From Escherichia phage BME3: DNA of 64,000 nt. The notes under the pieces are model-generated. The model saw only the letters and a list, made by a program, of their open reading frames with translations, did no database searches and was not told the DNA's origin. The stretch is from sequence record PP239276.1; one strand, 5' to 3'. Positions within the stretch are counted from its first letter, which is position 1. Each line of letters begins with the position of its first letter. Below, piece by piece: positions 9,626 through 64,000 of this stretch. The translations under genes were made by a program, and so were the position numbers.

Positions 9626-9710
9626 ATGGTAGCTAAGGTGAGACTCGAACTCACAATCCCTTGGGGCAATACGTTCTAAGCGTATCGTGTATACCATTCC
9701 ACCACTTAGC
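9626..9710 (-). tRNA. tRNA-Leu (anticodon UAG), type II
   Basis: 85 nt with long variable arm; anticodon arm ATACG/CTTAGAA/CGTAT; T-arm GTGAG/TTCGAGT/CTCAC. Confidence 0.6.
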
Positions 9711-9787
9711 CATAAAAATACACCACTGTAAGAAGCCTCAATGTGCTATTGACAGTTAACCAAGTCTACTCCTTGGATGGTGATATT

Positions 9788-9862
9788 TGGTGCAGAGAGA
9801 TGGTAACGATCCATCCTTTCTACCTTTTCAGGGTAGCACTAATCCGTCTCAGCTATCTCTGC
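9788..9862 (-). tRNA. tRNA-Phe (anticodon GAA)
   Basis: Acceptor GCAGAGA/TCTCTGC, anticodon arm CTACC/CTGAAAA/GGTAG; T-loop ATCGTTA is non-canonical. Confidence 0.5.
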
Positions 9863-9867
9863 AAATT

Positions 9868-9943
9868 TGGTCAGTGCGGCAGGACTCGAACCTGCGACCT
9901 GAAGCGTCCAAGGCTCCCACGCTACCAACTGCGCTACGCACTG
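9868..9943 (-). tRNA. tRNA-Pro (anticodon UGG)
   Basis: Perfect acceptor CAGTGCG/CGCACTG, D-arm GCGC..GCGT, anticodon arm GGAGC/CTTGGAC/GCTTC, T-arm GCAGG/TTCGAGT/CCTGC, CCA encoded. Confidence 0.7.
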
Positions 9944-9950
9944 TAAATCT

Positions 9951-10025
9951 TGGCTGGAGATCTAGGAATCGAACCTAGTCATCACGACTTCAAAGGCCGT
10001 TGCCTTCCCACTAGGCTAATCTCCA
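9951..10025 (-). tRNA. tRNA-Gln (anticodon UUG)
   Basis: Acceptor TGGAGAT/ATCTCCA, anticodon arm ACGGC/CTTTGAA/GTCGT, T-arm CTAGG/TTCGATT/CCTAG. Confidence 0.6.
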
Positions 10026-10124
10026 ATAAAACTAAAAATCACTTAAAAAGAACCGCTAGAGTTTGAAGGAGAAAACCATGAGCGAAAAGAGAAATTTTCT
10101 CTAGCGATTCCATTTAAATAATCT

Positions 10125-10199
10125 TGGAGCGAGTAACAGGACTTGAACCTGCACCTGGAGGGTGGAAACCTCATATGCTACCATTAACACTATACCCGC
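10125..10199 (-). tRNA. tRNA-Gly (anticodon UCC)
   Basis: Acceptor GCGGGTA/TACTCGC, anticodon loop TTTCCAC, T-arm GCAGG/TTCAAGT/CCTGT. Confidence 0.55.
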
Positions 10200-10254
10200 T
10201 TAACAATATTACTCTAACATATTATTAGCCCCTTTGTCAAGAGGCTTTTGATAT

Positions 10255-10584
10255 TTATTTTAAAATAGTAGATGAACCACGTCTGTTTAGATATGCAATA
10301 GTAAAGTCCAAATCACCTATTTCTTCAGGTTCCCACTGACCTTCTAAGCCATAACAAGAACAATGATATGCGTGTACTTCATAAAACAAAGATGTTTTCA
10401 TATCATAAAAATAAACGTGAGATTCACCTTCATAATATGCACAATCATAAGTGGCAGAAAGAATTACAATGTTATCCTTATCTAACTCTACTTCATAATA
10501 TCTTTCAACATCTTCAATATGATCAAAACCATCGAAAACATTGATATTAAAATATTTCTCTAACTCTTTTTCTGTCACATACAC
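10255..10584 (-). CDS. hypothetical protein embedded in tRNA cluster
   Basis: 109-aa ORF with GTG start preceded by AAGGAG RBS; Cys/Tyr/His-rich; no recognisable motif. Confidence 0.5.
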   Translation of the reverse strand: MYVTEKELEKYFNINVFDGFDHIEDVERYYEVELDKDNIVILSATYDCAYYEGESHVYFYDMKTSLFYEVHAYHCSCYGLEGQWEPEEIGDLDFTIAYLNRRGSSTILK

Positions 10585-10601
10585 TCCTTTAGAGTTAAAA
10601 T

Positions 10602-10676
10602 TGGTGCTCCCACAAGGACTCGAACCCTGATAAGTTGCTTACAAGGCAACCGTAATAGCCGTTATACGATAGGAGC
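10602..10676 (-). tRNA. tRNA-Thr (anticodon UGU)
   Basis: Acceptor GCTCCTA/TGGGAGC, anticodon arm GTTGC/CTTGTAA/GCAAC, T-arm CAGGG/TTCGAGT/CCTTG. Confidence 0.65.
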
Positions 10677-10682
10677 AATACT

Positions 10683-10759
10683 TGGACTCGACAGGATTCG
10701 ATACCTGCAATTCCAGAAGCCTCTTGGCGACTGGGGGTTTACCTTAACTCTACAAGTCC
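10683..10759 (-). tRNA. tRNA-like element (non-canonical: 8-nt T-loop, no clear anticodon arm)
   Basis: Acceptor GGACTTG/CGAGTCC and T-stem GCAGG/CCTGT enclose an 8-nt loop TATCGAAT; the interior forms a long hairpin (CCAGTCGCC-AAGA-GGCTTCTGG) rather than D/anticodon arms. Confidence 0.3.
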
Positions 10760-10766
10760 ATAATTC

Positions 10767-10851
10767 TGGCGATGGATCAAGGATTTGAACCTTGCTAGAA
10801 CTTTCGTTCACGGATTAACAGTCCGTCGCCCAACCACTAGGCCAATCCATC
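10767..10851 (-). tRNA. type II (long variable arm) tRNA with GUU (Asn) anticodon; Ser-like body
   Basis: 85 nt; acceptor GATGGAT/ATCCATC, discriminator G, 3-bp D-stem GCC/GGC, anticodon arm ACGGA/CTGTTAA/TCCGT, variable hairpin GAAC-GAAA-GTTC, canonical T-arm CAAGG/TTCAAAT/CCTTG. Confidence 0.5.
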
Positions 10852-10858
10852 TTTAATT

Positions 10859-10945
10859 TGGTGCAGGTAGTTGGACTCGAACCAACGAAGCCCAGAAGGG
10901 CAAGAGATTTACAGTCTCCAGCAATTGCCGCTATGCGATACCTAC
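10859..10945 (-). tRNA. tRNA-Tyr (anticodon GUA), type II
   Basis: 87 nt; acceptor GTAGGTA/TACCTGC, anticodon arm GGAGA/CTGTAAA/TCTCT, long variable arm, T-arm GTTGG/TTCGAGT/CCAAC. Confidence 0.6.
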
Positions 10946-10950
10946 GTGTT

Positions 10951-11026
10951 TGGTACATCGTGAAGGATTCGAACCTTCGACCTTGGAGTTAAAAGCCCCT
11001 TGCTCTACCAACTAAGCTAACGATGT
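10951..11026 (-). tRNA. tRNA-Lys (anticodon UUU)
   Basis: Perfect acceptor ACATCGT/ACGATGT, D-arm GCTT-AGTTGGTA-GAGC, anticodon loop CTTTTAA, T-arm GAAGG/TTCGAAT/CCTTC. Confidence 0.65.
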
Positions 11027-11150
11027 ATAAATTATCTTTAAAATAGCCAGTGTTTGCGGCACTTGACTATGGGATATCGGTAAGATGGTGGGGCCATCTG
11101 CCGAAAGTTTACTCTGTTAAAGTAAGATGACAAGCTACATTAAAGATAAC

Positions 11151-11236
11151 TTGGCGGTAGATGTAGGACTTGAACCTACACGCCGTTTCCGACGACAGTT
11201 TAGCAAACTGTTGTGGCTACCATTTCACCAATCTAC
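11151..11236 (-). tRNA. tRNA-Ser (anticodon GCU), type II
   Basis: 86 nt; acceptor GGTAGAT/ATCTACC, discriminator G, 3-bp D-stem GTG/CAC, anticodon arm ACAGT/TTGCTAA/ACTGT, long variable arm. Confidence 0.65.
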
Positions 11237-11245
11237 CGTTCTTAA

Positions 11246-11446
11246 TTATTCAAAACAACCGGAATCTTTTTGTTCTGCTTTTACCATACGAATATTTTTA
11301 CCATCTTCAGATTGTTGAAGATTAGAATACTCATAAATAACTTTATTATCTACAATCTTAACTCCGGTAACAACCTGTCCAATAGTTTTATAATTCATAA
11401 AGCTCCTAGTTGAATTTGGAGGAAGATAATGGAGTCGAACCATCAC
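11246..11446 (-). CDS. small hypothetical protein
   Basis: Track ORF overlaps tRNA-Ser(UGA) 3' end; AGGAG RBS before internal MNYKTIGQ suggests a ~50-aa product starting near 11398. Confidence 0.3.
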   Translation of the reverse strand: MMVRLHYLPPNSTRSFMNYKTIGQVVTGVKIVDNKVIYEYSNLQQSEDGKNIRMVKAEQKDSGCFE

Positions 11447-11506
11447 CGTATCGCTACAATGGGCCAGGGTTCAAACCTGGTTGCGCACCGCTGCGCCCTA
11501 CCTTCC
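11417..11506 (-). tRNA. tRNA-Ser (anticodon UGA), type II
   Basis: 90 nt; anticodon arm CCAGG/TTTGAAC/CCTGG, long variable arm, T-arm GATGG/TTCGACT/CCATT. Confidence 0.6.
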
Positions 11507-11569
11507 CGTTATCATACTTTAAATCTAACATAAAACTATGTTGCTTGTCAAGTAGTTTTTAAAACTTTT

Positions 11570-11651
11570 TGGCCGGGGTGACAGGATTCGAACCTGCATA
11601 CTCCAATTACTCGGTTAACGCCTGATTAGAAGTCAGGTGAGATACACCCCG
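11570..11651 (-). tRNA. tRNA-like element with Arg-type anticodon arm (UCU); D-arm not resolvable
   Basis: Acceptor CGGGGTG/CACCCCG and canonical T-arm; stem-loop CCTGA/CTTCTAA/TCAGG sits only 7 nt after the acceptor, followed by a 23-nt extra region. Confidence 0.35.
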
Positions 11652-11723
11652 TTTTCACAGTAACTATAACAAAAAACTAAGTAAATGTCAAGATATTTTT
11701 TACTAAATTGCTATTTAAATTGA

Positions 11724-11829
11724 AGCCTAGTTATGGAATCGAACCATATTTCGTATTTAGTTAGACAAAGCGATCTAACATATTTTTCAGGCTTTGATGG
11801 CCTCGGAATTACCAAATACCCTACCAGGC
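11724..11829 (-). tRNA. tRNA-like element (over-long, 8-nt internal loop; possible pseudo-tRNA or structured RNA)
   Basis: Canonical T-arm TATGG/TTCGATT/CCATA and 7-bp acceptor pairing spanning about 106 nt; interior contains hairpin GTTAGA-TCGCTTTG-TCTAAC instead of a canonical anticodon arm. Confidence 0.25.
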
Positions 11830-11831
11830 GT

Positions 11832-11917
11832 TGGTGCAAGTGGAGGGATTCGAACCCTCAATCATTTAAGCGTTGCGTTTTAAGCACAATGTGTATCACC
11901 AATTCCACCACACTTGC
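11832..11917 (-). tRNA. tRNA-Leu (anticodon UAA), type II
   Basis: 86 nt; perfect acceptor GCAAGTG/CACTTGC, anticodon arm TTGTG/CTTAAAA/CGCAA, long variable arm, T-arm GAGGG/TTCGAAT/CCCTC. Confidence 0.6.
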
Positions 11918-11948
11918 ATATAGGAGATGCATAGCACCTCCTTTTAAA

Positions 11949-12024
11949 TGGTGGTTCCCCAGGGTTACAATCCCTGCCCTCGACACTTATGAGGTGTGCG
12001 CTCTCGTCAGTGAGCTATGGAACC
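11949..12024 (-). tRNA. tRNA with CAU anticodon (third CAU species; Met/fMet/Ile2)
   Basis: Acceptor GGTTCCA/GGGAACC, D-arm GCTC..GAGC, anticodon arm CACAC/CTCATAA/GTGTC; T-loop ATTGTAA is non-canonical. Confidence 0.5.
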
Positions 12025-62547: not shown

Positions 62548-62721
62548 CTATTACAAGAACAGTAACATAGGAACATCATTAATGAAGGAATTAGTATAGG
62601 TATTCCCTATCAATTATTCTATATATACCTATTATTTTTAACACACCCATTTGTACATAATATAGACAAATAAATATCTATGCCACAAAAATTTTCCGGT
62701 ATACCCGATTTATTTCGACAC

Positions 62722-63139
62722 ACCCCCTTTTCATAAGCGTAAAGTCAATAATATCAATAACTTGCCGCAAAATACTGCTCGCTTGCGAGAGGTGCTTAAC
62801 GCGATTTTCAGCGCCCCCCGATTTCTGCCGACCGTCCCCCTCAAATATCAATGAGAATAATTATCATTTGCATTATCATTCAATGACTTATAAGACTTTT
62901 GATTATTTTCTGAGCGAAAAAGGTGCTACTCACAACAAAACAGATAAATTCTAAGTAAATCAATGACTTGGCAAGTCTAAACATCTATATACACCTTGCC
63001 AAATGAAATGATCCTGCGTGAAATAGTGCTACCCGTGGAAGATAGCTGATAATGATTATCATTTGCATATTTTCTATACTATAAAACGCCCTAAAAATCA
63101 AGATAATTCTACTTTATTGCGCTTTTAAGAAAGTAGGCT
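62722..63139. repeat. direct repeat copy 1 (~417 bp)
   Basis: Near-identical to 63584..64000 (about 3 mismatches, all near the 5' end); contains inverted repeat TTGGCAAG-N21-CTTGCCAA and hairpin CTCGC-TTG-CGAG. Confidence 0.8.
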
Positions 63140-63140
63140 C

Positions 63141-63212
63141 AACAAATAGGGAGATACATTGCAACAAATAGGGGTAATTTTATCCAACAAATAACAACAA
63201 ATAGTAAGTTAT
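63141..63212. repeat. iteron-like short direct repeats (CAACAAATAG x4)
   Basis: caacaaataggg...caacaaatagggg...ccaacaaataa...caacaaatagtaag within ~70 nt between the two large repeat copies. Confidence 0.6.
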
Positions 63213-63439
63213 ATGGGGCAATAGTATGAAAAATCATCTATTCAGATATAAATAATTTTGCGCAATAGTAGTAATATTTTCTTGACAAGAAAGATTTCTT
63301 TGTGTTCACATAGCGCCCCCTGGAAGGTGGCGCATTATGATCATCGGTGTCATTATTCACGATGTTTACTATTGCATAGCTCATTATTTAGCTTATATTA
63401 TAGCCAATGTTCTAAACATTAGCTAATAATAACGCACCG

Positions 63440-63540
63440 CAACAATGTAAGGGAATACAATATACCATGTATATTGTTGCGCTTGCAATTGTTGCAAGCT
63501 ACATAAGCACAAATAATAACTATCGGTGATAGTTATTATG
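63440..63540. promoter_or_regulatory. cluster of perfect palindromes (candidate operator/origin elements)
   Basis: GCTTGCAA-TTG-TTGCAAGC and AATAACTATC-GGT-GATAGTTATT lie within ~60 nt; coordinates approximate. Confidence 0.45.
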
Positions 63541-63583
63541 TGGGGTGTGTAGTTGCGTTATTATTAGCCGCCTATGTGTCCGG

Positions 63584-64000
63584 CACCCTTTTCATAATCG
63601 TAAAGTCAATAATATCAAAAACTTGACGCAAAATACTGCTCGCTTGCGAGAGGTGCTTAACGCGATTTTCAGCGCCCCCCGATTTCTGCCGACCGTCCCC
63701 CTCAAATATCAATGAGAATAATTATCATTTGCATTATCATTCAATGACTTATAAGACTTTTGATTATTTTCTGAGCGAAAAAGGTGCTACTCACAACAAA
63801 ACAGATAAATTCTAAGTAAATCAATGACTTGGCAAGTCTAAACATCTATATACACCTTGCCAAATGAAATGATCCTGCGTGAAATAGTGCTACCCGTGGA
63901 AGATAGCTGATAATGATTATCATTTGCATATTTTCTATACTATAAAACGCCCTAAAAATCAAGATAATTCTACTTTATTGCGCTTTTAAGAAAGTAGGCT
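63584..64000. repeat. direct repeat copy 2 (truncated by window end)
   Basis: Matches 62722..63139 base-for-base over its visible length apart from ~3 substitutions; may extend beyond the window. Confidence 0.8.

Follow-up and report, generated by a model that had tools for sequence, protein, structure and literature searches.

The stretch at 63140-63583 of the window (the whole length of DNA analysed, 64,000 nt of Escherichia phage BME3, PP239276.1) was read as a T7-style concatemer-junction and terminus-recognition region, lying in unique right-end DNA and adjoining a short direct terminal repeat (DTR); on sequence evidence, this preferred reading was given about an even chance. Conserved, sequence-specific repeat boundaries and short repeats in the flanking unique DNA, two marks of a T7-type junction, were both found. 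An initial annotation had proposed a replication origin or a set of operators at this place. Its view of the stretch as a dense cis-acting control region was upheld, but a terminal-repeat junction with a structured element fits the data better than either.

Genomic locus

Phages of the phi92-like and phAPEC8-like groups are common isolates and feature in therapeutic cocktails. The window belongs to a Justusliebigvirus genome (phi92-like, Stephanstirmvirinae), runs in the orientation opposite to phi92, and was matched over 63140-63583 by a nearest record of 95.8% identity. In all relatives a non-coding region of 1.5-2 kb occupied the locus, with the first early gene on one side of it and the last right-arm gene on the other, and the flanking genes on both sides, which specify small hypothetical proteins, were on the window - strand. 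The region was conserved in relatives, a point on which the initial annotation had let its own proposal depend, and its description of the stretch as non-coding also held. Open reading frames inside the stretch were 32-56 aa only, a PHROGs search with them returned marginal matches alone (E 0.0065 and 0.09), and indels in the corresponding stretch of relatives were not multiples of three and broke the frames. Coding potential of the small frames was rejected on the marginal matches and the frame-breaking indels. The features of the region are collected in Table 1.

A GC-rich hairpin (GCGCC...GGCGC) was present within AGCGCCCCCTGGAAGGTGGCGCA at 63313-63333 and was conserved in Justusliebigvirus; in Phapecoctavirus, a run of CGCCCCC likewise comes after the boundary.

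Table 1. Coordinates of features in and around the stretch (window numbering; in boundary motifs the bar marks the repeat boundary).
Feature	Position	Strand	Basis and remarks
Large repeat copy 1	62725-63139		72 nt of left-end spacer plus DTR homologue; repeated at 63586-64000 with three mismatches
Outer DTR boundary motif, GGTGCT|TAAC	62791-62800	+	Putative cut or nick between 62796 and 62797
DTR homologue (343 bp in phi92)	62797-63139		Alignment of phi92 DTR, matching again at 63658-64000; holds two Fur-box-like sites
Inner DTR boundary motif, TAGGCT|CAAC	63134-63143	+	Boundary between 63139 and 63140; overlaps iteron 1
Iteron array, 4 copies	63140-63204	+	Start-to-start spacing 22, 23 and 10 nt; span 65 nt
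GCAATAGTA repeats, two (63218, 63262)	63218-63270	+	Degenerate kin of iteron core in AT-rich patch; conserved in Justusliebigvirus
TTGACA hexamer followed by AAAGA-TT-TCTTT	63283-63301	+	Possible, unsupported promoter; conserved in close relatives; not called by consensus scan
Structured element core, three-way junction	63422-63568	+	Fold z-score and covariation
Helix P1	63422-63436/63554-63568	+	Three compensated pairs
Helix P2	63439-63451/63482-63495	+	Genus-specific tip hairpin 63458-63466/63470-63478
Helix P3	63498-63504/63547-63553	+	Opened by last two bases of the GCTTGCAA-TTG-TTGCAAGC palindrome
Helix P4	63516-63524/63528-63536	+	Palindrome AATAACTATC-GGT-GATAGTTATT (63515-63537)
Hairpin P5, 5' arm and loop	63570-63585	+	GCCTATG-TGTCCGG-CATAGGC in relatives; three covarying pairs; truncated here by duplication junction
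Large repeat copy 2	63586-64000		Cut by window end; base 64000 is the inner DTR boundary

Boundaries of the presumed terminal repeat

A 343-bp DTR is annotated at both genome ends of phi92, and the annotation of Salmonella phage UAB_1 gives the same 343 bp with the same boundary. Both annotations stop exactly at |CAACAAATAG, and the window reads ...AAGTAGGCT|CAACAAATAG at this point. The phi92 DTR was aligned to 62797-63139, and the DTR homologue therefore ends exactly where iteron 1 starts; the DTR of this phage is accordingly a presumed one, placed by homology to phi92. In published work, a DTR of 342 bp was given for BME3, whose packaging was stated to have been determined with PhageTerm (PMC12210895), and one of 317 bp for the Klebsiella phage FKP3, placed in Justusliebigvirus (PMC11663894); a "short DTR" was given for UAB_1 (PMC11350853).

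The letters across the two boundaries in the window were GAGAGGTGCT|TAACGCG (outer, 62796|62797) and AAGTAGGCT|CAACAAA (inner). GCT|TAACGCG at the outer and GCT|CAACA at the inner boundary were found wherever the fetched sequence spanned both (genomes, IMG/VR or metagenome contigs), so that one motif, GCT|YAAC, stood at both boundaries in every Stephanstirmvirinae genome examined. The pair was present in Justusliebigvirus, Phapecoctavirus, Klebsiella and Citrobacter relatives, and uncultured clades, with 319-412 nt from the outer to the inner motif; in phAPEC8 (Phapecoctavirus) the boundaries read AGAAGTGCT|TAACGCG and GAAGGTGCT|CAACATA. The phi92 and WPEC4 records stop at the outer boundary, and those of PD06, PHB05, VEcB, W22 and NWU are linearised at the inner one. 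NWU and WPEC4, both Phapecoctavirus and from other laboratories, terminate at homologous points (...GTGCT|CAACATATCG versus AACGCGAATTTTC), 328 nt apart. Several of the records that start at a boundary may merely have been oriented after phi92. That (G)TGCT|YAAC is shared by two positions fixed by annotation and is conserved across clades argues against chance and for real, sequence-specific processing sites. A rule of GCT|TAACGCG, ~320-410 nt, GCT|CAACA would place genome ends from sequence alone and would correct arbitrarily linearised records.

Copies of the boundary motif

The initial annotation had counted four iterons within ~70 nt. The cluster was real and occupied 65 nt, but consisted of three exact copies of CAACAAATAG (63140, 63162 and 63195) and one near copy, CAACAAATAA, with one mismatch (63185). 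The 64 kb contained no further exact copy, where ~0.26 were expected from base composition on both strands, and the cluster is far beyond chance.

Iteron 1 starts exactly at the inner DTR boundary and forms the right half of the boundary motif. Iterons 2-4 are without the GCT half and, because it is missing, are not full cut sites. In relatives the iteron core (C-AACAAAT-R-R) always followed the boundary directly, and the iteron segment was 20-75 nt long. One copy was counted in PD06, UAB_1, alia and PHB05; two in phi92, cardinal, ESCO8 and one IMG/VR contig; three in KKP_3264; four in the window and J-01; and five in W22. Spacing was always 10-11 or 22-24 nt, and the spacers diverged freely while the core was kept. 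Phapecoctavirus usually carried one boundary copy, CAACATATCG or CAACATTCC, and a second full GTGCT|CAACAT copy was located 56-67 nt downstream in WPEC4, Citrobacter phage Tr1 and two contigs (L027 and L036). As judged from these comparisons, the invariant part is one boundary copy, and the array is a lineage-specific, unstable, helically phased expansion.

Folded element downstream of the iterons

Both longer palindromes reported initially, GCTTGCAA-TTG-TTGCAAGC (63481-63499) and AATAACTATC-GGT-GATAGTTATT, were confirmed as perfect. A third, given as AAAGA-TTT-CTTT, was found to read AAAGA-TT-TCTTT (63290-63301); with arms of 5 nt it is trivial. Perfect inverted repeats with arms of 8 nt or more numbered three in the stretch, all of them different, against ~0.2 expected from the window's own density, and the two palindromes were enclosed by a perfect 15-nt long-range inverted repeat (the arms of P1 in Table 1). 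The 161 nt had fold z-scores of -7.3 (+ strand) and -6.7 (- strand), and in intact relatives the element extends over ~170 nt (63422-63591).

Covariation was scored in 19-20 distinct homologues from at least four clades. In the plain MAFFT alignment the five-helix structure was paired in 95.5% of cells, and 15 pairs were changed on both sides, in 70 cells versus 22.5 in shuffles; none of 500 shuffles was as good, and slid controls gave at most six such pairs. In the model-fitted alignment 98.2% of cells were paired and 78 were double-change cells. Compensatory changes were found at six of the nine pairs of P4 (e.g., GGGATAATC/GATTATTCC in L023). The sequence of GCTTGCAA-TTG-TTGCAAGC was invariant in all relatives apart from its three loop bases, and this loop (columns 73-75) covaried with upstream columns 25-27 (TTG/CAA, TTA/TAA, TAA/TTA and TCA/TGA), which indicates that the left half and loop of the palindrome form the 3' arm of P2. 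A plain GCTTGCAA-TTG-TTGCAAGC hairpin, as in the first RNAalifold drawing, was set aside since the loop covariation favours the longer P2; in the modelled structures both folds of this segment are possible, including a switch between them.

Wobble cells were strongly asymmetric (98 G·T versus 1 A·C), so the + strand would be the one that folds, antisense to the flanking genes. A cruciform was rejected, since one of its strands would have ~9% A·C mismatches. By covariation and wobble asymmetry, the palindromes form helices within a conserved single strand (RNA or ssDNA) whose folding is strand-specific.

The spacer from the inner boundary to the folded element was 225-375 nt long. The order of boundary motif, repeat, boundary motif with phased copies, spacer and folded element was fixed, and these parts were kept as a unit in all relatives. 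The element was searched against 5,426 E. coli genomes with no match, and against GTDB genomes with five pattern matches, attributable to chance, and zero covariance-model matches; no model match was obtained in the first 9 kb of rV5 (Vequintavirinae), whose record start is not its non-coding region. It is a well-supported element, absent from Rfam, with a fixed place beside the genome end. As an RNA, it would add a new member to the phage non-coding RNAs; as DNA, it would be a candidate fold-back or priming structure for repeat duplication.

A short motif, (T/G)GCTAAT(R/T)AT, was present in three to seven + strand copies within ~250 nt of the element in Phapecoctavirus and the Klebsiella/Citrobacter relatives (L008 2208-2632, L005 2386-2674 and L009 2251-2627), against a background of ~1 per 4.5 kb per strand. 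In the window it lies at 63422 and 63563, as an inverted pair formed by the P1 arms (GCTAATAATA). Throughout the subfamily, these copies may provide a second group of binding sites.

Duplication in this genome

The initial annotation had placed the stretch between two large repeat copies. The repeat itself was confirmed (62725-63139 and 63586-64000, period 861 nt, three mismatches), but the window stops within copy 2, so both the apparent end of copy 1 (63139) and the left edge of the stretch (63140) are set by the window and not by the repeat. Copy 2 differed from copy 1 at the equivalents of 62737, 62758 and 62765 only, all within the first 41 nt. The duplication covers the end of the spacer, the terminal repeat, the iterons and the folded element (62725-63585, repeated from 63586), and its junction falls inside P5: relatives continue with ...GGCATAGGCTGCTAATG, and the window moves to copy 2 after GGCA. 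Relatives have a single repeat copy, the unique stretch and then different sequence, and the junction GTGTCCGGCA|CCCTTTTCATAA (63585|63586) was in no record of the phage collection searched. No other genome among these records shares the 861-bp duplication, for which a true rearrangement, a recombinant or mixed population, and an assembly artefact are all possible sources. The stretch 63140-63585 may be duplicated past base 64000, and the source record probably starts with the second copy of the unique stretch.

A direct repeat of 21 nt (CCTATTATTTTTAACACACCC / CCGATTTATTTCGACACACCC) was located at 62628-62648 and 62705-62725, within the spacer that separates the terminal repeat from the first early gene, and a similar pair was seen in phAPEC8. 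The left breakpoint of the 861-bp duplication is the end of its second copy.

Reading of the region

Iteron 1 is the right half of the boundary motif, and one copy is enough in several viable relatives and genera; on these grounds end recognition and processing was put first among the readings. From the anatomy we infer that a terminase or its small subunit, making the genome ends, would recognise GCT|YAAC at both boundaries, and the motif with its phased repeats offers a concrete candidate terminase recognition site. The extra phased copies of CAACAAATAG would be auxiliary binding sites that load or orient the end-making enzyme. The folded element would join the same end-processing step, either as + strand RNA or as + strand DNA displaced from the boundary nick, and might serve as a fold-back or priming structure for duplication of the repeat. 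Several points weigh against end processing: iterons 2-4 are not full cut sites; records that start at the boundary may follow the orientation of phi92; tandem 22-bp iterons with an AT-rich patch are classic origin anatomy too; the conserved G·U pairs favour RNA, which has no obvious packaging role; and neither a promoter nor a terminator was found for an RNA.

In a bolder and rather improbable form of this reading, the region would be a genome-end module of Stephanstirmvirinae, in which site-specific nicking or cutting at GTGCT|YAAC, on either side of the repeat, is coupled to the ~170-nt strand-specific fold (a new RNA or displaced + strand DNA); the fold would prime or guide repeat duplication or start replication from the genome end, and the phased iterons would tune enzyme loading. 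If real, such a module would be a previously undescribed one.

A replication origin is an unlikely but serious alternative. A phage or host initiator would bind the phased 22-bp iterons, which repeat every ~two helical turns, and open the AT-rich patch that follows them (63200-63279, GC 0.24); the + strand fold downstream, on the strand exposed by a rightward fork or by extension from a nick, would be a single-strand initiation or priming site. The fold would be exposed on the lagging-strand template or on the strand displaced from a GCT|CAACA nick, in an arrangement like the paired double- and single-strand origins of rolling-circle replicons. The clustering of the GCTAAT(R)AT motif around the element in all genera is consistent with an origin as well. 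The iterons, however, number 1-5 among phages 79-93% identical here and usually one in other genera, which is unusual for an initiator array: at least three phased iterons conserved among relatives would mark an iteron origin, and PD06, UAB_1, alia and most Phapecoctavirus have one. Comparably AT-rich patches were found elsewhere in the region. A DnaA-box-like sequence between iterons 2 and 3 (TTATCCAAC, 63178-63186) agreed at seven of nine positions but was absent from J-01 and other relatives, and is probably fortuitous. The exact coincidence of iteron 1 with the repeat boundary is not predicted by an origin. The origin half of the earlier proposal was retained at lower confidence, iteron 1 being half of the boundary motif and one copy sufficing in viable relatives.

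It seems improbable that the fold belongs to a stand-alone + strand non-coding RNA gene, antisense to the flanking operons and with a regulatory or decoy role unrelated to the ends, the iterons being a separate matter. Five near-invariant G·U positions and one-sided changes from A-U to G-U and from U-G to C-G are typical of RNA, and the fold is strand-specific. At the Rfam gathering threshold only tRNAs passed in the window, with no family for the element, and in relaxed scans every match to the window or to phAPEC8 had E above 1, so that an RNA here would be new. Against it, counts of sigma-70 promoters and of intrinsic terminators in the window and J-01 were no higher than in shuffles, and no terminator was found after P5, which is without a U-tract. 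The constant order and limited distance from the DTR boundary in all clades suggest instead a linkage to the ends, and expression data were not found in the literature searched.

A multi-operator region is very unlikely; in it, early phage repressors or activators would bind the palindromes and iterons as double-stranded DNA and control promoters in or beside the terminal repeat. The sequence invariance of GCTTGCAA-N3-TTGCAAGC and of the P1 arms (GCTAATAATA, inverted), the TTGACA hexamer with its small palindrome at 63283-63301, and the Fur-box-like sites that flank the region are in keeping with operators. The operator view of the palindromes nevertheless gave way to a folded single strand: P4 and P5 change in sequence with compensation, the palindrome loop varies in step with a segment far from it, symmetric double-stranded sites cannot give a 98:1 excess of G·T over A·C, and promoter-like sites were not enriched. 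Half-site conservation in the invariant GCTTGCAA palindrome does not by itself discriminate between the two views. Finally, that the iterons are functionless slippage at a hot spot and the repeat structure a mis-assembly is hardly credible and largely refuted, since the 10-mer core is conserved with its phasing while spacers diverge and the boundary motif and folded element are conserved across genera, even though iteron copy number is unstable and a mixed population or mis-assembly could yield an 861-bp duplication unique to this genome.

Comparison with described systems

The T7/T3 concatemer junction reportedly has a 160-bp terminal repeat flanked by short-repeat arrays (SRL/SRR), with pac sequences close to its right end and a hairpin intermediate that depends on a palindrome and is said to have been proposed to prime repeat duplication. 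The present region resembles it in its presumed short exact DTR, in short direct-repeat arrays in the unique DNA abutting the repeat, in a hairpin-forming sequence a few hundred bp inside the right end, and in ends that would arise by sequence-specific processing of concatemers. Unlike T7, with which it shares no sequence similarity, this phage is a 146-kb myovirus; both boundaries here have one explicit motif in common (GCT|YAAC), the iterons (1-5) are on one side only, and the ~170-nt multi-helix, strand-specific, covarying element has no known counterpart in T7.

Lambda cos is alike in that a nick or cut site (cosN) is flanked on one side by repeated short terminase-loading sites (R1-R3 of cosB), a role that the iterons here would share; lambda, however, has cohesive 12-nt ends and not a 343-bp repeat, and its R sites lack this tandem, phased arrangement. 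With iteron origins (lambda ori, P1 oriR, R6K and RK2) the region has in common tandem direct repeats at ~22-bp spacing beside AT-rich DNA. It differs from them in that copy number is not conserved and one copy is enough in some relatives, in the lack of a conserved DnaA box, and in a first repeat that coincides with a presumed genome-end boundary.

The ssoA of rolling-circle plasmids, ssiA/ssiB of RSF1010 and the G4-type origin are 100-200-nt, orientation- and strand-specific folded DNAs near a nick site. The folded element matches them in size, in its strand-specific fold and in its closeness to a putative nick site, whereas no conserved sso motifs were identified here and the high G·U content fits RNA better; to our knowledge, this phage has no rolling-circle Rep protein. 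The injection-stop region of T5 is non-coding, rich in direct repeats and palindromes, and located inside a 10-kb terminal repeat at the first-entering end. It too is a repeat- and palindrome-rich non-coding stretch tied to a terminal repeat, but the element here is outside the 343-bp repeat and at the end opposite the early genes.

Additional sites around the region

Two Fur-box-like sites were located inside the terminal repeat (63048-63066 and 62853-62871), duplicated at 63909-63927 and 63714-63732. On the - strand, GCAAATGATAATCATTATC matches the E. coli Fur consensus at 17 of 19 positions, and a weaker copy (15/19) lies 195 nt off. At up to three mismatches, four matches were found in the 64 kb (two sites, each on both strands) versus 0.05 expected. 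Equivalent sites were present in other genera (L001 7392, L006 1997 and L005 2921), and a third site to the right of the folded element leaves the region flanked by such sites. From their sequence, these sites could serve host Fur control, titration of Fur, or binding of a phage protein.

GT-rich repeats (GTTGTT and TTAGTTGGTTG) were seen on the + strand in L005 (2700-3000) and L006 (2700-2980), on the right side of the folded element and downstream of the final gene of the right arm; this repeat region is absent from the window. As a - strand transcript the repeats would be C/A-rich and G-poor, like a Rho-utilisation site.

A tRNA cluster was located on the - strand at 9147-12024. ARAGORN called 16 genes, matching the count published for phage BME3 (PP239276), and Rfam called 14 tRNAs in the window, including one at 11573-11651 that ARAGORN did not list.
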